Positions 5,310 to 18,816 of a stretch of DNA of 52,800 bases are shown piece by piece. This DNA is from Candidatus Falkowbacteria bacterium (GTDB taxonomy: Bacteria > Patescibacteriota > Patescibacteriia > Patescibacteriales > UBA12465), in assembly GCA_903847415.1 (NCBI GenBank), contig CAINDR010000021.1, positions 1 through 52,800 of the forward strand, written 5' to 3'. Under the pieces are notes generated by a model that saw only the letters and a program-made list of their open reading frames with translations, did no database searches and was not told the origin of the DNA. Every line of letters starts with the position of its first letter. Position 1 is the stretch's first letter. The position numbers and the translations under genes are program-made.

Positions 5310-5639
5310 TTATTTTGTGAGGTAGCGCATAAAAGCTCTGCGGAATTGGCTTTCTTCTTTTGTCTCTTTTTTTTCTTTCTTGGCTTCTTTCTTTGGTTTG
5401 CTTTTTTCTTCTTCTTTAAATTTTGCAAAACGACCATAATACTCATCCCCCGGATCATCTTTCTCAGCTCTTGCCAGTTCTGTTCTCACTTTTTCCAGCT
5501 CCTCTTGATCATTATTTTTGACCATTTCTTTTGCCGATTCTTCGATTTTCTCATCTTTTCTAAAAGCCAAAGAATAATCTTCCGGGTTTGGCTTGATTTC
5601 ATGAGGAGGGAACTCAATTTTATATTGTTCACCGTTCAT
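5310..5639 (-). CDS. hypothetical charged protein
   Basis: E/K-rich ORF with extended -10 TGCTATAAT 6 nt before the ATG. Confidence 0.65.
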   Translation of the reverse strand: MNGEQYKIEFPPHEIKPNPEDYSLAFRKDEKIEESAKEMVKNNDQEELEKVRTELARAEKDDPGDEYYGRFAKFKEEEKSKPKKEAKKEKKETKEESQFRRAFMRYLTK

Positions 5640-5726
5640 AAATAGATTATAGCATTTTTGGATATAATTTGTAATAGGATAATAGTTAATTTTTTTAATT
5701 GACTAGTCTTATTCGGGTTTTATTAA

Positions 5727-5754
5727 AAAGACGCTTTTTGATATAAGCGTCTTT
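5727..5754 (-). terminator. intrinsic terminator
   Basis: AAAGACGCTT-N8-AAGCGTCTTT; T-run on minus strand. Confidence 0.6.
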
Positions 5755-5787
5755 GTTGATGAAATTTTTGTGATTTATTTTTTTAAA

Positions 5788-5943
5788 TCACTTTCTAATG
5801 AAACCGGACACTTTTTTAATCATCGAGATTAAGGCGTGAATCAAGTCGCTTTCTTTTAAATATTGATCGTAATCTTTTGGTGAAAGAAACTTGGCGGTTA
5901 TGGCATCTTCATCATTTTGTAATTGTAAAAGATCTGTAGTCAT
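5788..5943 (-). CDS. small hypothetical protein (51 aa, MTTDLL...)
   Basis: Internal ATG at 5943 lies downstream of TGCTATAAT; terminator follows. Confidence 0.5.
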   Translation of the reverse strand: MTTDLLQLQNDEDAITAKFLSPKDYDQYLKESDLIHALISMIKKVSGFIRK

Positions 5944-6046
5944 GATTACTATTTTTATATGGTTATTTATATTATAGCAAATTATTTTGTTAAAAACCAA
6001 TATTTTGTAAACTATTACTATTCTGAGCGCTTGTTTATTTTTAAAT

Positions 6047-6358
6047 TTAAGTCATTTTAGTCGTTTCAATTTCAATTGCCCTAGTTATCATTTTAGTGTT
6101 AACCATTGACTCTGGACGAGCCACTACCTTTCCGGTTACTGACAAAACCCATTTCACACCAACCTCTTGGGCTAAATTTATTAATTGTTCATTATTTCGT
6201 GATGGATCTAGAGTTATTTGTGTAACACCATAACGATCACGCAAGTCAAGAAAAATTAAAGCACCGACATTACGACGACTGGCAACCCAACCGGTTAAGG
6301 TTATAATGTTACCAATAGATTTGTTCGTCAATTCTCCACAAGTATATGTTCTTAACAT
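6047..6358 (-). pseudogene. aspS: 5' fragment of aspartyl-tRNA synthetase (OB-fold anticodon-binding domain only)
   Basis: MLRTYTCGEL...LTGWVASRRNVGALIFLDLRDRYGVTQ is the bacterial AspRS N-terminus; ends after 103 aa and no catalytic domain follows. Confidence 0.85.
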
Positions 6359-6487
6359 ATGGTTATTATTATAGTAATTATCCCTTAAATCCTATCATGG
6401 GGATAATTTTGTATCAACCGCGTGCTTTGGACCTCATTTTACTTTTTTTCGCAATTATGTTATTGTTGTGTATGAATTTTATAATCC

Positions 6488-6643
6488 ATGGCAACTTACA
6501 AACAGATAATTAAAGGTCTTGGTATACGCCCTGTGATAGGCTTTTTTGGGTATTCAAGTGTCACACTTGTAAAGGATGGAGAAGAAACAATTTTGTTTGA
6601 CACTGGCGGACCCGGAGTAAGATTGCCTCTCCAAAATAGCTGA
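6488..6643 (+). pseudogene. 5' fragment of a metallo-beta-lactamase-fold hydrolase (51 aa)
   Basis: Manual translation MATYKQIIKGLGIRPVIGFFGYSSVTLVKDGEETILFDTGGPGVRLPLQNS*; has ILFDTG motif but no HxHxDH. Confidence 0.6.
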
Positions 6644-6761
6644 TAGTATTTATAATACAATTATAAAAATCAAATCAAGTGAAAGCCGGGACTAAACCAT
6701 TAATACACTTACAAAAATTACCAAAGCACTGAGTGTCAGTGTTGATAAATTAATAAAATAA
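6627..6761 (+). pseudogene. decayed XRE-family HTH regulator remnant
   Basis: Manual translation LSKIADSIYNTIIKIKSSESRD*TINTLTKITKALSVSVDKLIK*; XRE C-terminal pattern with internal stop and no start. Confidence 0.65.
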
Positions 6762-6766
6762 TCTCT

Positions 6767-8245
6767 ATGAATAAAAATGATGCTATTAGTAAAATAACTA
6801 CTCGGGAAGAAAATTTTTCAGAATGGTATTTAGATGTAATTCGTGAAGCAGATTTGGCCGAAAATTCTCCAGTTAGAGGTTCTATGATTATAAAACCTTA
6901 TGGTTATGCTATTTGGGAAAATATACAGAAAGTTTTAGATGGTGAATTTAAAAAACGTGGCACACAAAACGCATATTTTCCACTTCTTATCCCAAAAAGT
7001 TTTCTAGAAAAAGAAGCTGAGCATGTAGAAGGCTTTGCAAAAGAATGTGCGGTTGTCACACATCATAGACTTGAAGAAAAAGATGGGAAGCTTATCCCTG
7101 CAGGTGAGATGGATGAGCCACTTGTTATTCGCCCAACATCAGAGACAATTATTTATGATGCATTTTCCAAATGGATTAATTCATACAGAGATTTACCTCT
7201 CATTATTAACCAATGGTGCAATGTAGTCCGCTGGGAAATGCGTCCAAGGCTTTTTTTGCGTACAACAGAATTTCTCTGGCAGGAAGGACATACAGCTCAT
7301 TCCACAAGAAAAGGGGCGGACGAAAAAACACTTGAAATGCTTGAGGTTTATAGACAGTTTGTCGAAGAGTATTTAGCCGTTTCACTTGTTAAGGGTAAAA
7401 AAACCGAACTAGAAAAATTTCCTGGGGCTGAATACACAGCTACTATTGAGGCCATGATGCAAGATGGTAAGGCTTTGCAGTCGGGGACTTCGCATATGTT
7501 AGCTCAAAATTTTGCAAAATCTTTTAACGTTTCGTTTTTAGATGAAAATCAAGAGAAACAATATGTATGGCAAACAAGTTGGGGTCTTAGTACAAGAATT
7601 ATTGGCGCTCTTATTATGTCGCATTCTGATGACAAGGGTCTCGTTCTACCACCAAAAATCGCTCCAATACAAGTCGTGATAATTCCAATTTGGACCAATG
7701 ACGGCGAAAAGAATGTTGTCTTTGCAGAAGTACAGAAAATTAAAAACGAATTTGAAGCTGGTGGAATTACATGTAAAACGGATGACAGAGAAGGGAGACC
7801 TGGCCCCAAGTATTTTGAATGGGAACGAAAAGGTGTTCCACTTCGCATTGAGATTGGTCCTAAAGATGTTCAAAAACAGTCAGTGATTATTGTTGATAGG
7901 ATTACAGGTAAAAAAGAGTGTGTCTTAAACACAAATATAGCTATCAGTGTAAAAGAAAGCTTGGAACAAATACAAAAAACATTACTTGAAAATTCAAGAA
8001 AATTTCGATTAGAAAATACTCGTGAGGTCTTAGATTATGAGGAGTTTAAGAAAGTTATAAATGAAAAAAAAGGATTTATTTTTGCTCATTTGTGTTCAGA
8101 CAAAAATTGTGAAGAAAAAATAAAAGAAGAAACAAACGCAAGTACAAGATGTATTCCTTTTGATGGAGGGTTGGGTGATACTGGTAAGTGTATTTTTTGT
8201 AAAAAAGATGCACAAAACAAAGTCCTATTCGCAAAGTCATATTAA
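6767..8245 (+). CDS. proS: proline--tRNA ligase, archaeal/eukaryotic type
   Basis: RPTSET, VVRWE, FLRTTEFLWQEGHT, QTSWG motifs; C-terminal Zn-like domain ending FAKSY. Confidence 0.97.
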   Translation: MNKNDAISKITTREENFSEWYLDVIREADLAENSPVRGSMIIKPYGYAIWENIQKVLDGEFKKRGTQNAYFPLLIPKSFLEKEAEHVEGFAKECAVVTHHRLEEKDGKLIPAGEMDEPLVIRPTSETIIYDAFSKWINSYRDLPLIINQWCNVVRWEMRPRLFLRTTEFLWQEGHTAHSTRKGADEKTLEMLEVYRQFVEEYLAVSLVKGKKTELEKFPGAEYTATIEAMMQDGKALQSGTSHMLAQNFAKSFNVSFLDENQEKQYVWQTSWGLSTRIIGALIMSHSDDKGLVLPPKIAPIQVVIIPIWTNDGEKNVVFAEVQKIKNEFEAGGITCKTDDREGRPGPKYFEWERKGVPLRIEIGPKDVQKQSVIIVDRITGKKECVLNTNIAISVKESLEQIQKTLLENSRKFRLENTREVLDYEEFKKVINEKKGFIFAHLCSDKNCEEKIKEETNASTRCIPFDGGLGDTGKCIFCKKDAQNKVLFAKSY

Positions 8246-8381
8246 AATATGATGAAAAAGTTTAACGGATATTATGAAGCTATTAATTATCTATAAGTAT
8301 CGACAGGGCGCTGCTGTTAATTTATGCTATAATTGTTAATAGCCTTGATTTCCTTAAGTTTTAATGGCAAAATAAGCAAAT

Positions 8382-10076
8382 ATGAAAAATAAACTTGCCA
8401 AGCTATTGGCAGAAAAAGTGCAAGAGCTTGGAGGCCAAGAAATTTCCCCAGCTCAATTATTAGCAAAAATTGAAATTCCCCCATTGCGTGATTTGGGTGA
8501 TTTTGCTTTTCCTTGTTTTGTGTTAGCAAAAGATCTCGCGCTTCCACCAGCAGTAATTGCCGAAAAGCTAGTTAATTTAATGACGACTCAGGATGGCATT
8601 CAGAAAGCAGTAGCAGTAGGGCCTTATCTTAATCTGTTCGTTGATCGGCTAGTTTTTGCTGGCGCTGTTTTGGATGAGGTTCTAACTCTTGGTGAAAAAT
8701 TTGGTAAAGCGGAAAGTAATCAACAAAAGATTGTCATCGAATACCCCTCACCAAACACCAACAAACCTTTGCATCTGGGGCATTTGCGCAATTTATCAAT
8801 TGGCGAATCATTAGCTCGTTTATTGACAGAAAATGGGGCAGAGGTGGTTCGAACAAATCTTTTTAATGACCGAGGAATTCATATTTGCAAATCGATGATT
8901 GCTTACCAAAAAGAAGGTCAGAATGCTGAGCCAGATAAAAAATCCGATCATTTTGTCGGCGATTATTATGTAAAATTTTCAAGCCTAGCTCAAGAGGATA
9001 AAAACTTGGAACAAGAAACTCAAGAGCTTCTTGTGAAATGGGAAAACGGAGATGAAGAAACCAGAGCGCTCTGGCAAAAAATGAATAATTGGGCTTTTAC
9101 AGGATTTAAAGAAACTTTTCAATTGGTTGGGATTAAGCATGACAAAAACTATTTTGAGAGTGAAATGTATCAACAGGGAAAAGAATTGGTCCTCAAAAAT
9201 TTAGCTGCTGGTCTTTTTGCGAAACGGGCTGACGGGGCAATTATTCTAGATCTCACTACAGAGGGTTTGGATGAGAAAGTTTTGTTGCGTGCCGATGGCA
9301 CTAGCGTTTACATGACTCAAGATCTGTATTTAGCTTTTCTCAAGGATGCCGATTACCATTACGATGATTCAATTTATATTGTTGGTAATGAACAAGATTA
9401 TCATTTTCAAGTTTTAGCAATTATTTTAAAGAAGTTGGGGTTTGCCAAGAAAATTAGTCATCTTTCCTATGGAATGATTGCTTTGCCGGAAGGACGCATG
9501 AAATCACGTGAAGGAACAGTGGTTGATGCTGATAATCTCATCTGGGAATTAACCGATTTAGCAAAAGAGGGAATTATTACTAGAACGAGCGACCTTGATC
9601 CGATCGAAACTAATATTCGCGCTCAGAAGATTGCTTTAGCGGCAATTAAATATAAATTACTCAAGACCAATATTTTTAAGGACATGATTTTTGATCCCAA
9701 AGAATCCTTAAGTTTTGATGGTGATACTGGACCATACCTTTTGTATTCTTTCGCCCGAGCTAAGTCGATTTTGGTGAAAGTTTCTCAAGAAGAAACTACT
9801 GACAAACTCACTGAGCTAGAAGATGTTGAATTTGCTTTAATTCAAAAAATTGCTGACTTCAAAGAATTACTCGTTTTTGCAGGTGCAAATCGCAATCCAT
9901 CACTGGTGGCTCACTACGCTTTTGAGTTAGCTCAAATCTTTAATGAATTTTATCACACCTGTCCGGTCGTTAGTTCTCATCAAATTAATTTACGCTTAAA
10001 GTTAGTGGAAGCTTTTACGATTGTTTTAGGAAAATCATTAAACATTTTAGGAATCGAAACTTTAGAGAAGATGTAG
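8382..10076 (+). CDS. argS: arginine--tRNA ligase
   Basis: EYPSPNTNKPLHLGHLRN (HIGH), MKSREG, GDTGPYLLY, C-terminal LGIETLEKM. Confidence 0.97.
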   Translation: MKNKLAKLLAEKVQELGGQEISPAQLLAKIEIPPLRDLGDFAFPCFVLAKDLALPPAVIAEKLVNLMTTQDGIQKAVAVGPYLNLFVDRLVFAGAVLDEVLTLGEKFGKAESNQQKIVIEYPSPNTNKPLHLGHLRNLSIGESLARLLTENGAEVVRTNLFNDRGIHICKSMIAYQKEGQNAEPDKKSDHFVGDYYVKFSSLAQEDKNLEQETQELLVKWENGDEETRALWQKMNNWAFTGFKETFQLVGIKHDKNYFESEMYQQGKELVLKNLAAGLFAKRADGAIILDLTTEGLDEKVLLRADGTSVYMTQDLYLAFLKDADYHYDDSIYIVGNEQDYHFQVLAIILKKLGFAKKISHLSYGMIALPEGRMKSREGTVVDADNLIWELTDLAKEGIITRTSDLDPIETNIRAQKIALAAIKYKLLKTNIFKDMIFDPKESLSFDGDTGPYLLYSFARAKSILVKVSQEETTDKLTELEDVEFALIQKIADFKELLVFAGANRNPSLVAHYAFELAQIFNEFYHTCPVVSSHQINLRLKLVEAFTIVLGKSLNILGIETLEKM

Positions 10077-10144
10077 GGAGGTATACCTAAACTAAATAAT
10101 GATAACTTTGGTAATTTTCTTTAATTATTTTTTTTGACTTTGCT
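10044..10144 (+). repeat. direct repeat copy 1 (argS 3' end + toxin 3' end), left flank of island 2
   Basis: 101 bp identical to 14508-14608 except for one mismatch. Confidence 0.97.
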
Positions 10145-10226
10145 TTTAAATAAGTTGCAGTTTTAAACTCAGTTATTTTGAGCTAAACAGTTATGAAATT
10201 TAAATAATTTAACTTGGTATATTTAT

Positions 10227-10940
10227 ATGCATAATAGTGCAAAGCAACTATTAAAAAATAAATTGTTAGAAAAATGGATAGCTGACGGGTATTTGGTGAA
10301 AAAATATTATGAGAAAAAAATTGCTAAATATTCTATTAATTCAGAAGCTTCTTTGGACTGGAGAACAAAAGAAATGCACGATTTATTTTTTTCTCATGTA
10401 TTAGATGGTGTTAATTTTTCTTCAGTAAATTCAATTTTGGACGTCGGATGTGGTATTTGTGGTATTGTTGATTATTTAGATTCTCTGGGTGTAGAGAATT
10501 TTAACTATTTAGGTATTGATATAGTGGACAGTTTTATTTCTGTTGCTCAAAATAAATATTTTGAAAGGGATGTTGATGTTTTGAATAAAAATTTTTTAAA
10601 CGAAGACTTTTGGCCCAAGAGAAATTTTGATTTAGTGTTAAATCTTGGTGGTTTAAATTCAAAGGTTAGATTTCAATATAGCTTCCTGCAGTACAATATT
10701 GAGAAAATGATTTTATGTAGTAGTAAATATGTTGCATTTAATGTTTTAATTAAAGTTAAAAATACATATTTTAAAAAAAATAAGCTTAGAGCTGTGGGAG
10801 CAATTGCTTCTTTCGATGAAGACAAGCTTATTGCTATTTTAAAAAAAATTAGTCTTAAATATAACATTGATTTTGATATTAAAAAAATCTCTATATTCGA
10901 AGGTAGTATCGACGCCTTTGTATTAATTAAATTATTATGA
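10227..10940 (+). CDS. class I SAM-dependent methyltransferase
   Basis: SILDVGCGICG, YLGIDI, FDLVL. Confidence 0.85.
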   Translation: MHNSAKQLLKNKLLEKWIADGYLVKKYYEKKIAKYSINSEASLDWRTKEMHDLFFSHVLDGVNFSSVNSILDVGCGICGIVDYLDSLGVENFNYLGIDIVDSFISVAQNKYFERDVDVLNKNFLNEDFWPKRNFDLVLNLGGLNSKVRFQYSFLQYNIEKMILCSSKYVAFNVLIKVKNTYFKKNKLRAVGAIASFDEDKLIAILKKISLKYNIDFDIKKISIFEGSIDAFVLIKLL

Positions 10941-11485
10941 AGTTAATAAATAAGCCAAATAAAATAGTAGTTGATCAAATAAATAACATTATTCATCTCG
11001 ATTGGCAGGCCATTGAAGTTGCTGTCGGTTTGTTTCATAAAAAAATAGAAAAAATATCACCATTTGATTCTTTGTTGGTACTTGTCAGAGGGGCAATGGT
11101 ACCAGCCGCCATGTTGTCTCATTCGCTAAATAATAGGAACATGAAATTTTATCAGGGAGTTAAAACGAACTCAAACAAACCGCATGATTATGGAAAATTT
11201 CGTAGTTTGTTGCTACCAAAACTGATGCCAGGAGAGAGGTTATTAATTGTAGAAGATATTATTTTTGAAGGTGATACTGTTAATAATGCTATTGATTATG
11301 TAATAAAATGTGGTTGCGTATGTGTTGGAGTTTGTAGTATAGTAATCGATGAAAATCTAAAAAATTTACCAGCTATAAAAAGAAATTCGGTGCCACTGAT
11401 AGGTGCTTACGAATGTGAAAATCTAAAATGGATAAGATTTCCATGGGAAATAAAGATAGATAATGAAATATCTATTAATTTTTAA
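10937..11485 (+). CDS. type I phosphoribosyltransferase (Gpt/purine PRT-like)
   Basis: LVRGAMVPA, PRPP loop LLIVEDIIFEGDT, C-terminal WIRFPWE. Confidence 0.85.
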   Translation: MKLINKPNKIVVDQINNIIHLDWQAIEVAVGLFHKKIEKISPFDSLLVLVRGAMVPAAMLSHSLNNRNMKFYQGVKTNSNKPHDYGKFRSLLLPKLMPGERLLIVEDIIFEGDTVNNAIDYVIKCGCVCVGVCSIVIDENLKNLPAIKRNSVPLIGAYECENLKWIRFPWEIKIDNEISINF

Positions 11486-11499
11486 ATAACATTATTGTT

Positions 11500-12057
11500 A
11501 TGATTGTGGTGTTAGAGGGGTTGCCTGCTAGCGGCAAAACAACAATTGCTAATTATTTGCAAGTAAATTGTAATTTTAATAAAGTTAACGAATCCCTTGG
11601 TTACCTGGGTGGAGTTAATCTTTCGGATGATCAAGGGGAAATTTTTCAAGAAACCCTTAAAAAATATAATTTAGCAAAGATTTCAAAATCGCACTCCGTG
11701 ATAGATCGTGGTTATGCATCGATGCTCGCATGGGATTATTGTGCTGCGCACTTAAAAATAGCTGACAATCTATCTACTAAAAATAAATGGGTTACCAAGG
11801 CAATAAAAAAAGGCTTATTATACGAGCCAGATATTTACATTTATTTAGCTATTAGCGAAGAAACTAGTTTAACAAGAAGACCCAGGAGGGAAAACATTAA
11901 AGATGTTTGGACTAGCGTTTTAGGATTAAAATATTGTTTGGATTATTATGCATATTTTTTTGGAAAAGAAGAAAACAAGAAAAAAACTATTTTTATTGAT
12001 GCCGAAATGAACACAAAAGAAGTGATCAAAATTTTAAAGGCTAAATTGTTAATATGA
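11500..12057 (+). CDS. thymidylate/deoxynucleoside kinase-like P-loop protein
   Basis: VLEGLPASGKTT, VIDRG, PDIYIYL. Confidence 0.8.
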   Translation: MIVVLEGLPASGKTTIANYLQVNCNFNKVNESLGYLGGVNLSDDQGEIFQETLKKYNLAKISKSHSVIDRGYASMLAWDYCAAHLKIADNLSTKNKWVTKAIKKGLLYEPDIYIYLAISEETSLTRRPRRENIKDVWTSVLGLKYCLDYYAYFFGKEENKKKTIFIDAEMNTKEVIKILKAKLLI

Positions 12058-13343
12058 AAAAATCTGTTCATATAATTTATATAGCTGAAGATGGAGTATC
12101 TTCTTTGGTCTGTGGTGTCGGGACGATAGTCCATAATTTTTTATTATCTTTTGATAAAATCGCGTCAAATTTTGAAAAACATTCCGTTGTTTTAAGGTTG
12201 TCTATAATATCATTAAAATACAAAAAAACAGATATAGGTTTTAGGCCTGATTTTTTAAAAAGATCTGCTGATTTATGCAAATTCTATAAAGGTTCACTCA
12301 TATTAATTGACAAGCCTAATAATCATTCAAGTGATTATTTTAATTTTTCTAATTGGAAAATTCTTAATCGCAAAGTAAGATTTATTTTAAAAGAAATATT
12401 TAGCAAGAATGATGATCTTACAGTTATTATTTCAAACGATACTATATTCGCCGAATCTTATTTTGTAGAGTCAAAAGTAATTAATATCTGGCTACCAAAT
12501 AGTTTGGGTATTTTACATAAGCAATCTTACGTCCAACAACCAAAACGAATATCTTGGGAATTAAGTGCGATGAATAGATCAAAAAAAGAAAATTTTTTTA
12601 TAGGTAGTGTATCGAGATATATTTTTAAAATTATAATACAAAAATACGATTTAAATCCTAACAAGGTACTATCTCTACATAATGGGTTTAACTTATCGTC
12701 CCTTAAATTGTTTTTAAGGAACGATTTCGAAATATCTAGTTATTTAAAAAAAAGAAAGATACCTCTAGACAAGAATATAATTTTTTGCTTCGCCAGAGCA
12801 GATGAATATAAAGGCCTCGATGTTGCATTAAAAGCTATGCTTAAAATTTCTAGAAAATATGGATTGCATCCAGTCTTAATTGCTTCTAAGTTTAGTGATG
12901 AAAAATTTATAGAGAATATACAAGAGCAGTTAAAATTTATAGCGAATAAATCTCAACAACCTGTATCTTTATTTTTTGATTACGAATTTGAACTACCAAA
13001 ATATCTTTTGCAATATAAACGAGTGAAATATTTGCTTAATATGCCTAAAAATGATTTTTGTCCTCTAGTTCCTTTTGAAGCTGAAATTTTGGGGCATAGA
13101 GATTTATGTGTTGTTAATAGTAATATTGCTTGTATTAGAGATGTAATAACAGACATGCAAGATGGATTTCTTTGTTTGCCGGCGTCAAAACATATAGTTA
13201 AAAAAATTGCTAAAATATTTGACTTATCTCCTGATGTGAGAAATACTATTATTGCTTCAGGTAAGGCAAGAGCCTTGAAAGCAATGGATATTAAAAAAAG
13301 CTATTTAGCAACTTTAAAAATGCTTATAGATACTAATATATGA
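12054..13343 (+). CDS. GT-B fold glycosyltransferase (GT4-like)
   Basis: N-terminal CGVGT, HNGF, FARADEYKGLD, DFCPLVPFEA, DVITDMQDGFL. Confidence 0.75.
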   Translation: MKKSVHIIYIAEDGVSSLVCGVGTIVHNFLLSFDKIASNFEKHSVVLRLSIISLKYKKTDIGFRPDFLKRSADLCKFYKGSLILIDKPNNHSSDYFNFSNWKILNRKVRFILKEIFSKNDDLTVIISNDTIFAESYFVESKVINIWLPNSLGILHKQSYVQQPKRISWELSAMNRSKKENFFIGSVSRYIFKIIIQKYDLNPNKVLSLHNGFNLSSLKLFLRNDFEISSYLKKRKIPLDKNIIFCFARADEYKGLDVALKAMLKISRKYGLHPVLIASKFSDEKFIENIQEQLKFIANKSQQPVSLFFDYEFELPKYLLQYKRVKYLLNMPKNDFCPLVPFEAEILGHRDLCVVNSNIACIRDVITDMQDGFLCLPASKHIVKKIAKIFDLSPDVRNTIIASGKARALKAMDIKKSYLATLKMLIDTNI

Positions 13344-13750
13344 AAATTTATTCTGCGGGTGGAGTATTAACCAAAAAAGAAAATAACCAGATTTTTGTGT
13401 TGTTAGTAGAACATCTTGATGGTACTTTTGTTTTTCCAAAGGGTCATGTTGAGGAAGGTGAAACTTTTCAGGAGGCAGCTAAAAGAGAAATAAGGGAAGA
13501 AGTTGGTCTCTCGGATATTGTTATTGATAAACAATTAGGTGTAATAAAAAGAGTTTCAAAAAATTTAGGCAATCAGCTAATAGAAAAAAGGATTGTTATG
13601 TTTAGTGTAATTATAAATAATTATGATCATCTAAAAAACACTGAAGAAGAGTACCGTTGGTTTGATATTGATGATGTAGCGGGTCGCTTAAGATATAGCG
13701 AAGATAGAAGATTTTTTTTAGGAATAAAAGGTTTTTTAACATTAAAATAA
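13340..13750 (+). CDS. Nudix hydrolase (Ap4A-hydrolase-like)
   Basis: SAGGV start and FPKGHVEEGETFQEAAKREIREEVG. Confidence 0.9.
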   Translation: MKIYSAGGVLTKKENNQIFVLLVEHLDGTFVFPKGHVEEGETFQEAAKREIREEVGLSDIVIDKQLGVIKRVSKNLGNQLIEKRIVMFSVIINNYDHLKNTEEEYRWFDIDDVAGRLRYSEDRRFFLGIKGFLTLK

Positions 13751-13769
13751 AGATTGAGGAGGGTTGAAG

Positions 13770-14378
13770 ATGAGAAAACAAGTTGTGTTTATTGGTGGAA
13801 TCCATGGTGTTGGTAAATCAACTATATGTCATGAGGTGCACTTAGCGACGTCAGCTATTATTGTAAAACAAAGACACTTAGTGAAAGAGGTGGCAATAAA
13901 ACTTGGGGCTATTACCTGGGAAGATGCAGGCCTGGTTCATAATTTAGTTATAAAGGATGCTGCCAGTTTGGTTATAGAAAGAGTAAAAGCTAAAAAAAGT
14001 TCGCTTGTTTTAGTCGACTGTCATTATTCAATAAGGCAAGCCAAAGCTTTAAGAATAAGTTCCAGTCCAGGCTTTAAGGGATACATCCCGGACTTAGACG
14101 AAAAATTTGTTTCTGTGCTAAGAAAATATTTTGAATTAAAATTTATTTTAGTGCAAACTGCCCCAGAAATTGCTTTTGCAAGAATTGTAAACAGACCAAT
14201 AGAGATTAGAGATGTCGATTGTAGTTTGGAGTTAATGGTAAAAAGTGAACGAATTGAACAAATATATTTTATCCAAATGGTTCAGAATTTTCAAATTGAT
14301 CAGAAAAACTTTGTGATATTAAATAATAATGGTGACCTAAGCCAGACTTTAAAATCTTTTAATAATTTCGTTTTTTAA
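13770..14378 (+). CDS. nucleotide kinase-like P-loop protein (archaeal adenylate-kinase-like)
   Basis: FIGGIHGVGKST, LVDCHY, ARIVNR lid, ILNNNG. Confidence 0.7.
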   Translation: MRKQVVFIGGIHGVGKSTICHEVHLATSAIIVKQRHLVKEVAIKLGAITWEDAGLVHNLVIKDAASLVIERVKAKKSSLVLVDCHYSIRQAKALRISSSPGFKGYIPDLDEKFVSVLRKYFELKFILVQTAPEIAFARIVNRPIEIRDVDCSLELMVKSERIEQIYFIQMVQNFQIDQKNFVILNNNGDLSQTLKSFNNFVF

Positions 14379-14400
14379 GGACTATAAAATAGTCCTTTTT
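14377..14400 (+). terminator. intrinsic terminator ending island 2 operon
   Basis: AAGGACTAT-AAA-ATAGTCCTT-TTT. Confidence 0.7.
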
Positions 14401-14507
14401 AATTGGTCAGTAAACCTAATAAAATAAAAGGTTAGCTATGTATTAGACTTTTTGAGCGCAGGAGAAGATATTTTTTTATTAATAAAGAACAAAATAACTT
14501 TATAAAT

Positions 14508-14608
14508 ATTTTAGGAATCGAAACTTTAGAGAAGATGTAGGGAGGTATACCTAAACTAAATGATGATAACTTTGGTAATTTTCTTTAATTATTTTTTTTG
14601 ACTTTGCT
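14508..14608 (+). repeat. direct repeat copy 2, right flank of island 2
   Basis: Re-encodes argS terminal ILGIETLEKM*; 100/101 match to 10044-10144. Confidence 0.97.
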
Positions 14609-14943
14609 GTTTCATTGCCACCCTCTAAATCATTTTTATGATAAACCAATAAAACATTAATCAATTTTTTCTCGTTATGCATGGCAACAATACAGCGGTT
14701 CCCAGATCCATGGCGAGATTTTTTTGTTCCTGCGATACTAAATTCAGTTTTTATAATTTTAATATCAAAATCTTTTGCAATTATTTCGGCAATAGATTTT
14801 TCTAAGATAACGTCAAAACTTTGAAACTCTCTCACGAGAGCTTCTATTGTAATATCCCAGGATCGTCCATATTTTTTAGCAAATTTTTTGATGAAGTGGC
14901 GATGGGCGTATTCTTCGAAATTTACTGAATATTTAGTAAACAT
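14551..14943 (-). CDS. putative toxin (RelE/HigB-like fold) paired with Panacea antitoxin
   Basis: Overlaps antitoxin stop; GSGNRCIV...INVLLVYHKND resembles RelE-superfamily C-terminal strands. Confidence 0.55.
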   Translation of the reverse strand: MFTKYSVNFEEYAHRHFIKKFAKKYGRSWDITIEALVREFQSFDVILEKSIAEIIAKDFDIKIIKTEFSIAGTKKSRHGSGNRCIVAMHNEKKLINVLLVYHKNDLEGGNETAKSKKIIKENYQSYHHLV

Positions 14944-15622
14944 GGTTTGGGTCCTCTTGGGTTATTAGACTATAAGGGATTATTTCATTATCTTCGCAGA
15001 TTGCATATGGTAGTTGGTCATGAGTAAATTTGACGATATCTTGAGTTCTTTTTCCGCGCCATTTTAAGGAGATATCTTTAATCATTTTTAGCTCCACTGC
15101 GTTTAGTTCTGATAACTTTTCCCGTTCACCGGAACGAGTCTGAGAAATAAAAAAGACACCATCCTTTGTGGTTTTATCTACCTCGATAATTCCAGCCTCA
15201 AAAAGTTCTTCAATGGCGCGGAAATAATTATCTGGCACTGGACCGTATTGAATTTTTCGATAAGGCATTCCGCTCATACTTTCTAGATGTTCATAGAACC
15301 AAGCAAAATCAGCCAAGTAGAGCATTTTTGCTAACTTGGTTTTTGGTATTTTGCTATGAGAGTCTTTTTCTGATCGCAAATAGGCTAAAATCATTTGCTT
15401 GTATTTTTTGTAGTTTGGTTTTAGCCCGCCACGCATTTCTTCTAAAGAAATGCCAAAAAGATCCGCTAGTTTTATCGCCTCAAATAGGCTTAGTTCGTTT
15501 TTTCCTTGTTCAAAGCCAATATAGGAAGATCGGGAAATGCCAATTTTTTCGGCGGTTTCTAGCTGAGAAAGACCTCTTTTTAGTCTTAGTTCTTTGATAA
15601 ACTTGTAATAATCTTTAGTCAT
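14933..15622 (-). CDS. XRE-HTH + Panacea (DUF4065/SocA) antitoxin
   Basis: HTH IKELRLKRGLSQLETAEKIGISRSSY; Panacea motifs KTKLAKMLYLAD, YGPVP, FTH; ATG 15622 preferred. Confidence 0.85.
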   Translation of the reverse strand: MTKDYYKFIKELRLKRGLSQLETAEKIGISRSSYIGFEQGKNELSLFEAIKLADLFGISLEEMRGGLKPNYKKYKQMILAYLRSEKDSHSKIPKTKLAKMLYLADFAWFYEHLESMSGMPYRKIQYGPVPDNYFRAIEELFEAGIIEVDKTTKDGVFFISQTRSGEREKLSELNAVELKMIKDISLKWRGKRTQDIVKFTHDQLPYAICEDNEIIPYSLITQEDPNHVY

Positions 15623-15685
15623 ATTACTAAGATTATAAGGCAATAATGTTTAAAAGTCAAACAAAGCTTGTCTATATTTTAGACA

Positions 15686-16564
15686 TTATAATTTTAAAGT
15701 AGTCACTAATAATTTCTGATAATCTTGCCAACGCTTTTCTTCTTCCTGGAGAGATTTCTTAGCCCAAGAGACGAGAAAATTATTCTTTTCTAAAACTGAT
15801 ATTTTTTTTGCTTTGGTAATTGCTAAAGCTAAAGTTTCAATTAAATAATTGTGAAAGTGGGGATAGATATTTTGGAAAATTTCTATTTCCAGGTCAGAGA
15901 GATTGTCTTTTTTATTTTTAAATTTTTTCATTAAACTGACTGTGACTGCGGTGGGAATATTATTTTTTAAATCATCATGCCAATCATATAAGTCATCAGC
16001 AAGTTGCCGACAATTAAGAAATAGCACGAGAAAATCCCAAAACTTCTTTTGCTCTGTTGAGTTAATGTCGCGATTTTCTAAAAATAAAAAGACTGAAATA
16101 TAGAGCCCCAAAGATTTTTGGTGGCCCTTTTTTAAAAGAGAATCTTCATCAAGTGTTTGCCAATAATTTGGATTCTTTTTTAGTTCACTAACTCGTGAAA
16201 ATTCGGTTTGATTGGCAATTTCCATTATTAAAAAAGCTTTGTCGACCAATTTACTTTTTCCGCCCAGAACTTTGGCGCTTTCAAATAACAAAAGATTAGC
16301 AATAGGAAGTTCGGCCAAACTGGCGCCACCATCCATTATGTGATCATAAATAGTATAGGATCCCCAGAGTTTCAAATTGGCTTGTTTCCAGGATTTCTTG
16401 TCGGCTTTTGGTAAGGGAGAAAAAGCCTTTTTGTCTCGCCAAGATTTTTCTAGACTAGTAATGATTTCTACGGAAGCAAGACCTTCGGGGCTTTTGAGAA
16501 TTTTATCATAAATTGGTTTCACCGTTTTTTGAATAGAAAATAAAGATAATTTTTGTGTTTTCAT
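15686..16564 (-). CDS. class I isoprenoid-synthase-fold prenyltransferase (ComQ-like candidate)
   Basis: Two Asp-rich motifs YDHIMD and QLADDLYDWHDD; helical composition; ATGA overlap with kinase. Confidence 0.7.
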   Translation of the reverse strand: MKTQKLSLFSIQKTVKPIYDKILKSPEGLASVEIITSLEKSWRDKKAFSPLPKADKKSWKQANLKLWGSYTIYDHIMDGGASLAELPIANLLLFESAKVLGGKSKLVDKAFLIMEIANQTEFSRVSELKKNPNYWQTLDEDSLLKKGHQKSLGLYISVFLFLENRDINSTEQKKFWDFLVLFLNCRQLADDLYDWHDDLKNNIPTAVTVSLMKKFKNKKDNLSDLEIEIFQNIYPHFHNYLIETLALAITKAKKISVLEKNNFLVSWAKKSLQEEEKRWQDYQKLLVTTLKL

Positions 16565-17973
16565 ATCTCGTGTTTGAAATCGATGGGCAAGATAATTGAA
16601 AATAAGCAGCCACCTTCTTTGTTATTTTTTGCCTCTATTTTTCCGCGGAAATCTTGCTCTACTAAATGTTGAATTGAAGAAAGTCCCAACCCCAATCCCT
16701 TTCCTTGTTTTGTACTAAAAAATGGAGTAAAGATTTTTTCAAAATTTTCTGAGCTAATTCCTGGGCCGTTGTCCTTAATGGTTAATTTAATTTCTTGGTT
16801 ATTTTGGTAGTTTAATTTGATACTTATTTTTTTGTTTAATGATGAATTTTCACCAAGAGCATCAAGAGCGTTAGTGATTAAATTCATAATTATCTGGCTA
16901 AATTTTAAAGGGTCACCAAAAATTTTAATATCTTCTTCGTAGCGAAACTTCAGTAGCACTTTCTCTCGAATGGCTCGGTGGTTTAAAAGACTAATCATTC
17001 CCTTGACTTCTTGGTTAATCGAAAATTGACGACGACACTCTTCTTTCTGAAGTTGTTTTTTAACACTGATTACCAATACTTCCATTCTTTTTGCTGCTTC
17101 CACTGCTTGTTCAACTTGATAGGAAGTTTTTTGATATTGTTTATCTCGAGAAAGTTGTTCCAGATTCAAAGAAACGGCAGTAAGAGGGTTGATTAGGTCA
17201 TGAAAAATTCCTGCGGAAATTCGACCAAATTCGGCAAAACGATAAAGTTGGCTAATTTTTTCCATTTGCATTTTTTGTAATTGCTCAGTTCTTTTTTTAA
17301 CCGTTATTTCGAGATTATCTCTTTCTATTTTGAGCGCCTGTTCAGAATTAAGAGCTTTTCTAAGGGAATTTTCAATTTCTCGGTTAGCTAGCCAGGAAAG
17401 AGTAGCCATAATCGAAAGAGTAATAATAATTGGGATGGCGTCATAAATTGTCACCATTTCTGTTGCCCAATAGGTATTTGGAGTGATAATTTGATGGCCC
17501 TGAAGATATCCAAGGGTCGCAAGATAGAGGCTAATAAATAGAGTTGTAATCAGAGAAAAACGAGTACTAATTAAAATTCCAGCGCTTAAGATGGTGAAGG
17601 CATAAAGTAAAAGACTTTGAGGTAAATCTATTCCCCAGTGAAAAGAGAGATATAAATTTGGAATAAAGAAAATACTTAAAAAAAGGAGAGAAGCGATTTT
17701 AATCTTTTGTTTTCTAGAAAGATAATGAGCAAAAACGAAAACAGCACCCATTAAAATAAAGACCGCAGGTTGGAAACCGCGGTCTTCACCAGAAATAATA
17801 TCGATAACTTCACGAATAAAGGATAATAACAAAATTGTGGCCATTAAAATCTCTGAAGAAATTAAGAGAATGTTAAGAATAAATTCTTTTCTTTTTTGCT
17901 CCTCATTTTCACTTTGAGCTTCGATTAGGTGGTGATAAATTTTTTGACTTAATTTTTTTAAAATTTTTTTCAT
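16561..17973 (-). CDS. membrane sensor histidine kinase (about 6 TM, HisKA + HATPase_c)
   Basis: H-box FHDLINPL, N-box NLITNALDA, DNGPGI, FTPFFSTK, GLGLGL; six hydrophobic N-terminal segments. Confidence 0.95.
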   Translation of the reverse strand: MKKILKKLSQKIYHHLIEAQSENEEQKRKEFILNILLISSEILMATILLLSFIREVIDIISGEDRGFQPAVFILMGAVFVFAHYLSRKQKIKIASLLFLSIFFIPNLYLSFHWGIDLPQSLLLYAFTILSAGILISTRFSLITTLFISLYLATLGYLQGHQIITPNTYWATEMVTIYDAIPIIITLSIMATLSWLANREIENSLRKALNSEQALKIERDNLEITVKKRTEQLQKMQMEKISQLYRFAEFGRISAGIFHDLINPLTAVSLNLEQLSRDKQYQKTSYQVEQAVEAAKRMEVLVISVKKQLQKEECRRQFSINQEVKGMISLLNHRAIREKVLLKFRYEEDIKIFGDPLKFSQIIMNLITNALDALGENSSLNKKISIKLNYQNNQEIKLTIKDNGPGISSENFEKIFTPFFSTKQGKGLGLGLSSIQHLVEQDFRGKIEAKNNKEGGCLFSIILPIDFKHEI

Positions 17974-18141: not shown

Positions 18142-18816
18142 TTATGGTTTTGGAATTTCCAACTTATATCCACGACCGGGCAAAGTGCTAATTATTTTTT
18201 GTTTTTTGTCGTTTAATTTTTTTCTTAATTTTAGAATATGCATTTCGATTGTGTTTGAAAAAGGATCACCATTGATGTCCCAAACTCCCTCCAATAATTT
18301 GGTTCGAGATAAAACTTTCCCCTGATGCTTGACCATGAATTCTAGTAGAGCATATTCTTTTCCAGTTAAGACGACAGTTTTTCCTTTTTTGGTGGCGGAA
18401 AAATTTTCGGGATCAAGGGTGATTTGTCCGCAAGAAAGATTTTTTTCTTCTCTAATAACTGGTCGCCTACCAAGAGCTTGGATGCGAGCTGATAGTTCGG
18501 TCATTGAAAAAGGTTTGGTGAGATAGTCATCTGCTCCAGATTCAAAACTTGCTACTTTGTCATCCAATTCCGTTCGAACGGTGAGCATGATGATTGGCGT
18601 CCAAATTTTTTCTGATCGAATTTCTTTGATTACTTCTAAGCCATTTATCCCTGGCAATAAATAATCCATAATGATAACATCGTAGTCATTGGTTCGAGCC
18701 AGAAAAGAACCTTCTTCGCCATTGCGCGCTGAATCGACAACATGATTTTCCGCTTTTAAAGCTTGAACTAAAAAGGCATTAAGAGCCACCTCATCTTCAA
18801 CAAGCAAAATTTTCAT
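18142..18816 (-). CDS. OmpR/PhoB-family response regulator
   Basis: LLVEDE, IIMDYLLPG, GADDYLTKPF, winged-helix LTGKEYALL...LRKKL...GRGYKL. Confidence 0.95.
   Translation of the reverse strand: MKILLVEDEVALNAFLVQALKAENHVVDSARNGEEGSFLARTNDYDVIIMDYLLPGINGLEVIKEIRSEKIWTPIIMLTVRTELDDKVASFESGADDYLTKPFSMTELSARIQALGRRPVIREEKNLSCGQITLDPENFSATKKGKTVVLTGKEYALLEFMVKHQGKVLSRTKLLEGVWDINGDPFSNTIEMHILKLRKKLNDKKQKIISTLPGRGYKLEIPKP

Follow-up and report, generated by a model that had tools for sequence, protein, structure and literature searches.

Several described systems bring together enzymes of the kinds considered here. Glycosyltransferases (GTs) of the LmbT, MshA and sucrose-phosphate synthase type follow a logic in which a synthase is paired with a phosphatase. 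The phage T4-type pathway combines a dNTP pyrophosphatase (the dCTPase gp56), a TS-like hydroxymethylase (gp42), a dNMP kinase (gp1) and DNA glucosyltransferases (alpha and beta). Deazapurine nucleoside antibiotic pathways of the tubercidin and toyocamycin type employ a phosphoribosyltransferase (PRT) and a Nudix hydrolase; we know of none with a GT and two NMP kinases, as in the cassette described below. The Patescibacteria, in which that cassette resides, depend on salvage. A module linked to the Ter system contains nucleobase PRTases and HAD phosphoesterases and, in the part of the account drawn on here, is predicted to make a nucleoside-like metabolite; the same part describes NAD salvage modules in jumbo phages with the NadR ribosylnicotinamide kinase, NadM-Nudix and nicotinamide PRT (PMC7824862).

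Results

The window, which is the whole stretch of 52,800 nucleotides analysed (from contig CAINDR010000021.1 of a Candidatus Falkowbacteria bacterium), has these features at the locus; the repeats carry no strand.

10039..10147: direct repeat of 109 nt on the left, comprising 38 nt from the end of argS, 12 nt of spacer and a truncated copy of the convergent downstream ORF's 3' end
10148..10226, +: non-coding leader inside the island, 5' of the MT gene; promoter presumed
10227..10940, +: MT, class I SAM-dependent methyltransferase, 237 aa (Methyltransf_25, 29.8 bits, cut-off 27, 9.9e-7)
10301..10328: internal repeat, left copy, 28 nt, imperfect (family D10); one end of a 2886-bp deletion allele
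10937..11485, +: type I PRT, 182 aa, PRPP-loop motif intact (Pribosyltran, 34.4 bits, cut-off 26.3, 1.7e-8)
11500..12057, +: kinase 1, P-loop NMP kinase of 185 aa resembling thymidylate and deoxynucleoside kinases; its translation is coupled to that of the GT
12054..13343, +: GT, retaining-type GT-B glycosyltransferase, 429 aa (Glycos_transf_1, 35.0 bits, cut-off 26.4, 1.3e-8)
13187..13214: internal repeat, right copy, 28 nt; other end of the 2886-bp deletion allele (spacing 2886)
13340..13750, +: Nudix hydrolase of the Ap4A/dinucleoside-polyphosphate hydrolase clade, 136 aa (NUDIX, 59.3 bits, cut-off 21.1, 5.1e-16)
13764..14378, +: kinase 2, NMP kinase of archaeal adenylate-kinase-type fold, 204 aa from TTG 13764
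14377..14397, +: terminator-like hairpin from the site scan (9-bp stem, 3-nt loop, T-rich tail)
14503..14611: direct repeat of 109 nt on the right; orphan copy of the argS 3' end, followed by that of the intact convergent ORF (14551-14943)

An ORF check of the window found six co-directional plus-strand ORFs at 10227-14378, in the order SAM methyltransferase, type I PRT, TMK/dNK-like kinase, GT-B glycosyltransferase, Nudix and archaeal-adenylate-kinase-like kinase. The ORFs and domain calls agree with the original prediction, which had placed six genes of these types here and had described them as translationally coupled: three 4-nt ATGA overlaps, at 10937, 12054 and 13340, can be read directly in the sequence, and the remaining intergenic gaps of the operon are 14 and 13 nt. 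Kinase 2 more likely starts at ATG 13770, giving 202 aa, because GGAGG lies upstream and an identical database protein (P0024) has this length. The predicted terminator is present as a hairpin overlapping the last stop codon, but the region held one terminator-like site against 1.4 expected by chance, so the hairpin is suggestive by position only. Promoter-like sites in the region were not in excess (22 found, 25.9 expected by chance). The RNA-library trace of cassette transcription is one 223-nt contig.

The cassette lies on an inserted island. Its 109-nt direct repeats are 97% identical, have a spacing of 4464 and occur nowhere else in the genome. A same-genus genome (G002) carries a single repeat copy at an unoccupied junction between argS and the downstream ORF, an empty site, and a contig from a public run (X2) joins 10043 to 14508, representing a repeat-to-repeat empty allele that coexists with the island. 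These data sharpen the earlier proposal of a recent insertion, and the strong A+T-richness that went with it is borne out by a GC content of 29.3% against a genome mean of 35.4 +/- 2.0% in 4355-bp windows, none of which (0 of 1380) was as low. The cassette is absent from all seven same-genus genomes and from 59 of the 60 same-family genomes. The insertion hotspot is variable, with an AAA_14/DUF4143 ATPase in genome G007 and nothing in G002, and a domain search identified the cassette's neighbour as an HTH-SocA/Panacea antitoxin pair. Contigs from two other samples (X5 and X9) run from 10313 straight to 13200, with a shared stretch of 15 nt; the resulting deletion allele retains only Nudix and kinase 2. 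We suggest that the cassette entered between argS and the toxin-antitoxin-like pair by a Campbell-type event that left the direct repeats, and that it is dispensable and moves between Patescibacteria lineages.

Most family matches of the cassette proteins in profile searches are at superfamily level, far below curated equivalog cut-offs. The MT is generic by every search; its five orthologues are 38-46% identical and its PDB matches are weak (they include the cap guanine-N7 MTase 1ri1 at 2.8e-5). The PRT is nearest to archaeal and bacterial 6-oxopurine PRTs (purine PRT 1vdm, 8.8e-10; Sulfolobus GpT-2, 4.3e-6), and its best NCBIfam match, xanthine PRT at 5.9e-9, is far below the equivalog cut-off. 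Kinase 1 matches dNK, Thymidylate_kin and AAA_18 just under each cut-off (E about 1e-5), matches the thymidylate kinase family phrog_761 over its full length (2.9e-11), and has TMK/dNK/AAA_28 proteins as structural neighbours in the Atlas (TM 0.78-0.86). Kinase 2 reaches 27.9 bits with AAA_18 (cut-off 29.4) and 1.5e-5 with the archaeal adenylate kinase profile, and its model (pLDDT 91.7) resembles archaeal adenylate kinases (TM 0.72-0.80); it forms a discrete family of 37 clusters at E<=2e-39, the next match appearing only at 1e-5. The Nudix protein matches the Ap4A hydrolase 3i7u (1.5e-20), CT771, NUDT2 and Ndx1. The GT family is small and very distinct, its profile giving 426 matches at E<=1e-3 among 1.84 billion representatives. 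The GT model (pLDDT 93.6) places the enzyme structurally nearest to small-molecule GTs: LmbT is best (TM 0.87), followed by MshA (TM 0.70-0.75), sucrose-phosphate synthase, GlgM, TPS, TreT and VldE. Sequence identity to the LmbT, MshA and sucrose-phosphate synthase type of structure is only 12-15%.

Conserved co-occurrence was assessed in 11 non-redundant close loci (the window, L013, L014, L015, L016, L017, L018, L021, L022, L029 and L030); L019 was dropped for its 99.9% identity to L016, and L020 because it duplicates L015 exactly, while the sister species L029 and L030 (95.6%) were both counted. In all 10 assessable loci the gene directly upstream of the GT is kinase 1, the cluster includes a Nudix domain in 11 of 11, and kinase 2 was found in each of the 10 loci where it could be assessed. 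MT and PRT are present in five of nine assessable loci; wherever the MT occurs, the PRT adjoins it. Co-occurrence elsewhere had been set beforehand as a test of the original prediction, and it was found: beyond this core in every assessable related locus, all six domains are present in L013 and L015 and, in the same order, in two genomes of another family (G344 and G170). Across a phylum sample, the kinase-1 family occurs in five of 401 genomes, each time beside the GT family. Domain fusions join the same partners. They comprise kinase 1::GT (P0096, its kinase part 29% identical to kinase 1 of the window, E 2.5e-12), GT::Nudix (P0019, P0065, P0066, P0067, L021, L029 and L030), Nudix::methyltransferase, involving a second methyltransferase (L013, L014, L015, L016 and L022), GT::orotate-PRT-like (P0202; PDB 3qw4 at 4e-22), GT::APH-type kinase (P0114) and a weak GT::NDK-like fusion (P0166). 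In cluster variants, HAD or HD phosphohydrolases take the place of MT and PRT. A divergent kinase-GT pair in L031 sits among TS-like, QueC-like, Ham1 NTPase, HD and IMPase/CysQ-like proteins, and other related loci adjoin Fic-domain genes and rve transposases. An MFS gene of L013 lies outside that locus's repeat, and an adjacent Vut_1 transporter occurs in L015 only.

Discussion

The chance is about even that the six genes are a single mobile accessory operon encoding a self-contained pathway of nucleotide tailoring with a small-molecule product. The PRT would join a nucleobase, most likely of purine type, to PRPP and yield a nucleoside monophosphate; the MT would methylate base or nucleotide; and the TMK-like kinase 1 and adenylate-kinase-like kinase 2 would raise the NMP to the NDP, possibly to the NTP. 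The LmbT/MshA-like GT-B may then use an NDP-sugar to glycosylate the phosphorylated nucleotide, much as MshA and sucrose-phosphate synthase act on phosphorylated acceptors, and the Ap4A-hydrolase-type Nudix may trim polyphosphates or limit the pool of product or intermediate, leaving a methylated glyco-nucleotide or glyco-nucleoside. Substrates, step order, product and biological role are all inferred here. It could equally be that the GT acts on the leaving-group side, recycling NDP. The domain fusions and the modelled structural neighbours seem best fitted by a nucleotide-centred small-molecule pathway, and the nucleotide-tailoring interpretation of the original prediction is supported, its chemistry and choice of role being matters of inference. 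Several observations count against it, among them the superfamily level of most family matches, the generic MT and the single RNA-library contig. Domain searches found no sugar-1-phosphate nucleotidyltransferase or other sugar-activating gene in the cassette, so that the host cell has to supply the sugar donor; nor did they find an exporter or transporter between the repeats. The pathway as a whole is easily lost, because the allele reduced to Nudix and kinase 2 persists in samples from two other studies. If the tailoring pathway is real, a mobile cassette in tiny-genome Patescibacteria makes a phosphorylated, methylated, sugar-linked nucleotide from a nucleobase.

The two NMP-type kinases and the NTP/Np4N-type Nudix would also be consistent with a triphosphate destined for polymerases, as in hypermodification. 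In another account, which we judge unlikely, the same chemistry serves an anti-phage or anti-competitor system: a toxic or chain-terminating analogue (a glycosylated or methylated NTP) poisons the phage or host polymerase and the Nudix protects the producer. Kinases that possibly reach the triphosphate, with a Nudix, suit a scheme to make and police an NTP analogue; the site is a variable hotspot beside an antitoxin pair, other loci lie by Fic-domain genes and rve transposases, populations contain presence, absence and deletion alleles side by side, and kinase 1 and Nudix have weak PADLOC matches to VakA (3.3e-8) and PDC-S07 (8e-10). Evidence from hotspot neighbours is circumstantial, however, and PADLOC gave no system-level match to any known defence system and no meaningful match for GT, MT or PRT. 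Because the cassette also lacks a sensor, a regulator and an effector, the product would be made constitutively. Hypermodification of nucleic acid in the T4 style is distinctly improbable: here the Nudix would remove a canonical NTP, the MT modify the monophosphate, the kinases rebuild the modified (d)NTP and the GT glycosylate the polymer. That scheme offers a functional analogue for each cassette gene, the phrog_761 family matched by kinase 1 is a phage family, and a TS-like gene adjoins the L031 pair. Yet the GT has small-molecule GTs as neighbours, with no DNA glucosyltransferase among the 40 structural matches listed; 2.9 million viral contigs yielded no relatives of GT or kinase 1 and only P-loop-level matches to kinase 2; PRT products are ribonucleotides; a domain search of the cassette revealed neither a TS-like nor any other C5-modifying enzyme, and no polymerase, nuclease or restriction partner; and the cassette is polymorphic within a population.

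Classic drug-modifying enzymes include P-loop kinases, GTs and methyltransferases, and the cassette might be a resistance or detoxification island in which kinases, GT and MT inactivate an incoming nucleoside-type antibiotic or antimetabolite by phosphorylating, glycosylating or methylating it and the Nudix cleans up toxic nucleotides. Its mobile context, the APH-type kinase fused to one GT-family member and weak NCBIfam matches to Tet(34) XPRT (1.9e-4) and an Rmt 16S rRNA methyltransferase (3.5e-4) are in keeping with this, but those matches are all far below cut-offs, it is not obvious what a PRT would do in drug inactivation, and strict gene order, translational coupling and multi-domain fusions favour one sequential pathway over parallel inactivators; we regard this account as very improbable. 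There is slighter probability still that ordinary nucleotide salvage genes happen to lie beside an unrelated cell-envelope GT. PRT, NMP kinases and Nudix are salvage or house-cleaning enzymes and would suit the salvage dependence of Patescibacteria. The cassette is nevertheless not housekeeping, because the host has its own ADK, its own TMK and a second PRT-domain gene and the cassette is missing from all same-genus and nearly all same-family genomes. In the 401-genome sample kinase 1 is never found apart from the GT, and with the kinase::GT, GT::Nudix and GT::PRT fusions this strict co-occurrence largely refutes the salvage account. Envelope-polysaccharide genes are lacking too: the cassette has no flippase, polymerase, lipid-carrier or sugar-activation genes, and for this reason, and because of the GT's small-molecule neighbours, it does not resemble a surface-polysaccharide locus, a match to which would have refuted the original prediction.

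In line with the original prediction, which recognised no named pathway in this combination, no defence system (by PADLOC), phage, polysaccharide or published pathway (by literature search) matched. NAD salvage modules likewise bring together a PRT, a P-loop nucleoside/nucleotide kinase and a Nudix domain, with fusions among them, as far as they are described in PMC7824862, and divergent kinase-1 relatives match AAA_28, the NadR-type kinase family; the cassette differs in having a GT and a methyltransferase, no HIGH-type adenylyltransferase, and a PRT of type I purine/orotate-like rather than nicotinamide type. The Ter-linked module is similar in its predicted synthesis of nucleoside/nucleotide derivatives, its nucleobase PRTase and phosphoesterases and its conflict-associated accessory setting (PMC7824862), whereas the cassette is without Ter domains and its invariant core of kinase and GT is not part of that module as described there. 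Deazapurine pathways likewise have a type I PRT, which attaches an unusual purine-like base to PRPP, and a Nudix that removes phosphates. The Vut_1/YhhQ-family transporter beside the L015 cluster and the QueC-like gene in L031 recall those pathways, but the cassette has no deazapurine-synthesis genes. The T4-type pathway likewise gathers an NTP pyrophosphatase-like enzyme, a dedicated NMP kinase, a base-modifying enzyme and a GT-B in one small set; the cassette has instead a PRT and a SAM methyltransferase, no TS-like enzyme, a small-molecule-like GT and a cellular setting, with no viral relatives found for GT or kinase 1. With the LmbT/MshA/sucrose-phosphate synthase type, the cassette GT shares the two-Rossmann GT-B fold and the Glycos_transf_1 C-terminal domain, and HAD, HD or IMPase-family phosphohydrolases lie beside the GT in cluster variants; by analogy, the replacement of MT and PRT by HAD or HD enzymes would fit the synthase/phosphatase logic. 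Apart from the low identity, the difference lies in the company kept: the partners there are thiol, inositol or sugar-phosphate enzymes, whereas here they are nucleotide enzymes (TMK-like kinase, Nudix, PRT and AK-like kinase). The GT itself is unusual, and in every assessable locus it has a nucleotide kinase as its partner.

Gene organisation of the cassette

Six open reading frames lie in tight packing on the forward strand between 10227 and 14378, with a hairpin at their end:

10227-10940, + strand: methyltransferase (MT), 237 aa
10937-11485, + strand: phosphoribosyltransferase-like protein (PRT), 182 aa
11500-12057, + strand: kinase 1, 185 aa
12054-13343, + strand: glycosyltransferase (GT), 429 aa
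13340-13750, + strand: Nudix protein, 136 aa
13764-14378, + strand: kinase 2, 204 aa counted from TTG
14377-14397, + strand: hairpin with a T-rich tail, overlapping the stop codon of kinase 2

The three ATGA stop/start overlaps of the original prediction are real and can be read in the sequence, and the domain that it gave to each of the six genes is backed by Pfam and NCBIfam, mostly at the superfamily level. We favour ATG 13770 over TTG as the start of kinase 2, because GGAGG precedes it and because a 202-aa database protein (P0024) is identical. A terminator had also been proposed at the end of the operon. The hairpin does sit on the last stop codon, but a terminator scan of the region returned one site against 1.4 expected by chance, so the hairpin is suggestive only by its position. 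Promoter-like matches were likewise at chance level in the region, with 22 found and 25.9 expected.

The island and its insertion site

Direct repeats of 109 nt at 10039-10147 and 14503-14611 bracket the block; they are identical at 106 of 109 positions and have no other copy in the 0.93-Mb genome. In each, the last 38 nt of argS are followed by a 12-nt spacer and the 3' end of a convergent ORF (14551-14943), and therefore both flanking genes are intact and an orphan fragment of each is found at the far side. At the same junction in G002, a genome of the same genus, argS adjoins that ORF with one copy of the repeat, an empty site; in the genome G007 a single AAA_14/DUF4143 ATPase gene is there instead. 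The junction thus behaves as an insertion hotspot whose cargo differs between species. The ATPase gene of G007 (L034, G007:C10, 2587-4020) encodes an nSTAND-like protein of 477 aa, and no direct repeats of at least 30 nt flank it.

Between the repeats, at 10148-14502, lie 4355 bp with a GC content of 29.3% against a genome mean of 35.4 +/- 2.0%, and none of 1380 equal-sized windows of the genome is as low. At the protein level the GT family is absent from 7 of 7 genomes of the same genus (82-97% complete) and from 59 of 60 genomes of the same family. Public sequencing runs hold other alleles of the island. Run X2, from lake water and from another sample of the study that is the probable source, has island contigs that are 100% identical, together with a contig in which 10043 is followed directly by 14508 and exactly 4464 bp are missing: an empty allele. 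In runs X5 and X9, from two other studies, a contig joins 10313 to 13200, a deletion of 2886 bp between 28-nt imperfect repeats (repeat family D10). It leaves Nudix and kinase 2 in place; PRT and kinase 1 are gone, and so is the greater part of MT and of GT. Stretches of X5, X9 and the RNA run X16 without contig cover were counted as absent only where a contig bridges the gap. X16 gave one 223-nt contig inside kinase 2, 100% identical and too little for a claim of expression. The cassette is thus accessory: it comes and goes as a unit and decays in some lineages.

The flanking repeats and the empty site in a relative are traits of a site-specific integrative element; an element-encoded recombinase is lacking, with no recombinase or integrase domain among the six cassette ORFs, and rve transposases or remnants of them stand beside other loci only. 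Insertion by a single crossover of a circular form carrying one copy of the repeat would explain the structure. The repeats, the empty site in G002, the empty and deleted alleles and the lowest GC of the genome all bear out the original prediction of a recently inserted, very AT-rich island.

Genes outside the island

Immediately outside the island, and in the same place in G002 and G007, two genes at 14551-15643 on the - strand encode a 130-aa ORF with no family assigned and a 236-aa HTH_3 plus SocA/Panacea protein, which overlap by 11 nt and look like a Panacea-type toxin-antitoxin pair. The native genes downstream include the following:

16561-17973, - strand: membrane histidine kinase
18142-18816, - strand: OmpR-type response regulator
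18968-21085, + strand: PBP2-type transpeptidase

G002 and G007 both conserve the histidine kinase and a 292-aa ORF at 15686-16564. The host gene for thymidylate kinase appears to be split, with the C-terminal part of the profile at the end of the window contig (52435-52794, - strand) and the N-terminal part at the end of contig C60 of genome G000 (30409-30717), so the two contigs are probably neighbours in the genome. The host has its own thymidylate kinase, besides an adenylate kinase and a second PRT-domain gene, so the cassette is not the basic salvage kit of the cell.

Conservation of the gene set

Related loci were gathered by scanning contigs from genomes and metagenomes with an alignment of the GT relatives, and by scanning 401 genomes sampled from the phylum. 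With two duplicates left out (L019, 99.9% identical to L016, and L020, identical to L015), 11 close loci were kept: the window, L013, L014, L015, L016, L017, L018, L021, L022, L029 and L030, of which the last two come from sister species at 95.6% identity. Kinase 1 lies directly upstream of GT in all ten assessable loci (L022 begins inside GT), a Nudix domain belongs to the cluster in 11 of 11, and kinase 2 is present in ten of ten (L022 ends too early). MT and PRT are found in five of the nine loci that can be assessed for them (the window, L013, L015, L029 and L030). Loci without this pair have a HAD phosphatase (L018, L021) or an HD phosphohydrolase with genes of no known family (L016). In five loci Nudix is fused to a second, unrelated SAM methyltransferase, whose domain profile found nothing under E 0.3 in the PDB. 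Two genomes from another family of the phylum, G344 and G170, keep the order of the window as MT-PRT-kinase 1-GT::Nudix-kinase 2. The same six-domain combination therefore does occur elsewhere, with its order kept in these two genomes and its core in every assessable locus.

The set is rare. A word-indexed search of 5.8 billion proteins gave only 19 full-length relatives of GT. The kinase-1 family occurs in exactly five of the 401 phylum genomes, beside the GT family in all five, and a profile search places the GT family proper in seven. A relaxed GT search (E<=1e-3) matched 33 of the 401; in 26 of these the matches were short, partial and to generic GT4 genes, and we rejected them as family members. 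At 23 loci from those 26 genomes no kinase, Nudix, MT or PRT partner was found within about 1.5 kb, and one had a weak HAD-like match.

Signs of mobility accompany several of the loci. L018 and L021 adjoin rve transposases. L013, a second six-gene cassette, in a Parcubacteria MAG, has a 174-nt direct repeat (4893-5066 and 9942-10115, 85% identical) that encodes the C-terminal end of a histidine kinase as 3' fragments, and upstream of the cassette it has frameshifted rve-type transposase remnants (pseudogenes). In L029 (4460-4511, 5929-5980, 12038-12089) and L030 (7281-7346, 13211-13276, near tRNA-Val and tRNA-Leu genes) a sequence of 52-66 nt stands on both sides of the cassette and of two upstream genes, whose products of 268 and 244 aa match no Pfam or PHROG family; these repeats may be att-like sites of a larger island. 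By the repeats and transposases alongside, the other loci look mobile too. Two recurring neighbours were set aside. Histidine kinases near the cluster in L014, L015 and the window were judged incidental, because that of the window is native (it is in G002 and G007 without the cassette) and the kinases are not close homologues. A transporter is an inconsistent feature, since the MFS gene of L013 lies outside the 174-nt repeat and an adjacent Vut_1 gene is seen in L015 only.

Two distant members of the GT family have other company. In L032 (G409:C5), genes for a Fic-domain protein and an AAA_28 kinase come before GT, and a GT2 and a 499-aa protein of no known family after it. In L033 (G227:C47), GT follows a 5'-3' exonuclease and precedes two Nudix genes, then a GHMP and an AAA_28 kinase.

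The glycosyltransferase and its fusions

The fold of GT is GT-B, with two Rossmann domains, and the C-terminal domain is Glycos_transf_1 (35.0 bits; cut-off 26.4); the AlphaFold model has a pLDDT of 93.6. Among the Foldseek matches listed, LmbT is closest (TM 0.87), followed by MshA, sucrose-phosphate synthase, GlgM, trehalose-phosphate synthases, TreT and VldE; those matches include no DNA glucosyltransferase and no enzyme with a lipid-linked acceptor. LmbT, MshA, sucrose-phosphate synthase and their like are retaining GT-B enzymes that act on small soluble acceptors, often phosphorylated ones. Across 20 sequences R248, K253, D334 and E342 are invariant, and they may correspond to the Arg/Lys pair and the acidic E-x7-E-type motif by which such enzymes bind NDP-sugars. 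Many aromatic residues of the N-terminal (acceptor) half are also invariant, including Y95, F96, W101, F132, W146, Y159 and W168. We found no relatives of GT in viral contigs and no PHROG family for it.

Searched exhaustively with an HMM profile of GT, 1.84 billion representatives yielded 426 proteins at E<=1e-3, of which 107 reach E<=1e-30. In our judgement, made without a control profile, this reach is very narrow for a profile of the Glycos_transf_1 type, and the family thus appears well separated from mainstream GT4. Its long members are fusions. P0096 is kinase 1::GT, with a kinase part 29% identical to kinase 1 of the window (E 2.5e-12); P0019, P0065, P0066 and P0067 are GT::Nudix; P0202 is GT::orotate-PRT-like (PDB 3qw4, 4e-22); P0114 is GT::APH-type kinase; and P0166 is a weak case of GT::NDK-like, aligned over the whole domain (Pfam 24.4 bits against a cut-off of 27; PDB 5x00 at 0.007). 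All functions of the cassette except that of kinase 2 are covalently joined to GT somewhere in the family, directly or via Nudix. These fusions are the strongest evidence that the six genes form one nucleotide-centred pathway. A predicted complex of kinase 1 with GT (score 0.00; mark 0.32) is evidence neither for nor against their pairing.

The other enzymes

Kinase 1 is TMK/dNK-like by Pfam, by PHROGs (phrog_761 thymidylate kinase, 2.9e-11 over the full length) and by its structural neighbours in the Atlas, and no relatives of it were found in viral contigs. The model of kinase 2 (pLDDT 91.7) has an archaeal adenylate-kinase fold (TM 0.72-0.80), and its family is discrete, with 37 clusters at E<=2e-39 and the next match only at 1e-5. 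Fifteen matches to kinase 2 in viral contigs were mostly short and in the P-loop region, and were rejected as relatives; near the three that were checked (L046, L055 and L051) there were no other cassette genes.

PRT has a type I domain (Pribosyltran, 34.4 bits against a cut-off of 26.3) and an acidic PRPP-binding loop in which E106, D107 and T114 are invariant in three orthologues. Its best NCBIfam match is a xanthine PRT (NF006613, 5.9e-9), at 35.7 bits where the equivalog cut-off is 138, and its best PDB match is the purine PRT 1vdm (8.8e-10). It thus appears closest to archaeal and bacterial 6-oxopurine PRTs, far under the equivalog cut-offs. Nudix (NUDIX, 59.3 bits; box residues G35, E50, E53 and E54 invariant) has as its top PDB matches the Ap4A hydrolase 3i7u (1.5e-20), CT771, NUDT2, 1kt9 and Ndx1; it falls with the Ap4A and dinucleoside-polyphosphate hydrolases, and hydrolysis of Np4N substrates is its predicted activity. 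MT is a generic class I enzyme, for which ESM Atlas gave only generic class I methyltransferase clusters. A weak likeness to guanine-N7 methyltransferases (1ri1 at 2.8e-5, Rmt at 3.5e-4, TrmB at 0.011-0.017) is only a lead to that putative activity, taken up solely in the boldest reading below.

Proposed pathway and alternative readings

From these assignments a route can be proposed in which PRT would join a base to PRPP to give an NMP, MT would then methylate it, and kinase 1, possibly followed by kinase 2, would raise the NMP to NDP and perhaps NTP. GT would transfer a sugar from a host-supplied NDP-sugar to the phosphorylated nucleotide, and Nudix would trim polyphosphate or police the pool, a role that the HAD or HD enzyme may take in variant loci. 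Such a route would be expected to end in a methylated glyco-nucleotide or glyco-nucleoside. We give this scheme about an even chance. The original prediction of a nucleotide-building set came through the comparisons of co-occurrence and of polysaccharide loci and is strengthened by the repeats, alleles, synteny and fusions; the cassette itself is real, rare and mobile, while its chemistry is a well-constrained hypothesis and not a result. A surface-polysaccharide or envelope locus was rejected: the six genes include no flippase, polymerase, lipid-carrier transferase or sugar-nucleotide gene, and the partners of GT are all nucleotide enzymes.

The same chemistry could serve in defence or antagonism, a role that is suggested by insertion at a hotspot, by neighbours of the toxin-antitoxin and Fic kinds, by IS elements beside related loci and by the presence/absence polymorphism. 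The cassette has no sensor or effector, however, and no known defence system matches it: PADLOC-DB 2.0 gave no full system, only single-domain matches (VakA at 3.3e-8 for kinase 1, PDC-S07 at 8e-10 for Nudix), and nothing meaningful for GT, MT or PRT. We consider this role unlikely, though worth keeping in mind. Nucleic-acid hypermodification of the T4 type is rather improbable. Kinase 1 is a counterpart of the dedicated (d)NMP kinase of the T4 pathway, but the TS-like hydroxymethylase has none (no Thymidylat_synt match among the six proteins), and the phage-encoded DNA glucosyltransferase is not matched by a GT of small-molecule type with no relatives in viral contigs; PRT, moreover, forms ribonucleotides. 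What keeps this reading alive is the divergent locus L031 (G385:C6, about 4731-11130), the one place where a divergent TS-like gene was seen, near a distant kinase-GT pair. Its order is a TS-like protein (263 aa), a QueC-like PP-loop ATPase (287 aa), a Ham1 XTP/dITP diphosphatase, a TMK-like kinase, GT, an HD phosphohydrolase and an IMPase/CysQ-like phosphatase, every score being far below equivalog cut-offs, and it may be a pyrimidine-directed counterpart of the cassette of the window. Drug modification is very unlikely and plain salvage is the reading that we find hardest to credit; both fit poorly with the fusions and the strict coupling.

Beyond the proposed route from base to glyco-nucleotide lies a bolder suggestion, which we consider unlikely too: that ultra-small bacteria have a class of mobile nucleotide-glycosylating systems not described before, with the cassette as its first example. 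Its kinase-coupled GT-B family would make a sugar-modified nucleoside polyphosphate (here methylated, possibly of N7-methylguanine type). Used against phages, competitors or the host cell, this product would be a signal or a weapon aimed at polymerases or translation, and the Ap4A-type Nudix would be a safety valve for the producer.

Significance and relation to known systems

A large part of bacterial diversity belongs to the Patescibacteria, whose accessory biochemistry is, to our knowledge, almost unknown. The analysis defines a compact, portable gene set of 4.4 kb that is directly testable, being of a size that can be synthesised and expressed in a laboratory host. From the invariant pairing of a kinase with an unusual GT, which several independent fusions back, one would expect glycosylated nucleotides or nucleosides that are formed along a route absent from the literature searched. 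Were the product an antimetabolite, chain terminator or signal, a new chemical class would join the known systems of microbial conflict, along with a new enzyme family that makes sugar-modified nucleotides; were it a modified DNA or RNA building block, the cassette would be a cellular counterpart of phage hypermodification.

A full-text search of the literature found no description of this gene combination, in agreement with the original prediction, which did not recognise it as a named pathway, and as far as our searches reach the cassette is undescribed. The nearest concepts are the synthase/phosphatase pairs built on GTs of the MshA or SPS type and the logic of T4 hypermodification, both of which lack the invariant kinase-GT core. 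Deazapurine nucleoside antibiotics are made by pathways with steps by a PRT and a Nudix enzyme; these too are not known to have that core. A Ter-linked PRTase/HAD module has been predicted to make a nucleoside-like metabolite (PMC7824862). That module and the kinase/Nudix/PRT sets of NAD salvage, in the part of the same source compared here, come near to the cassette, which differs from both in its invariant core of kinase and GT.
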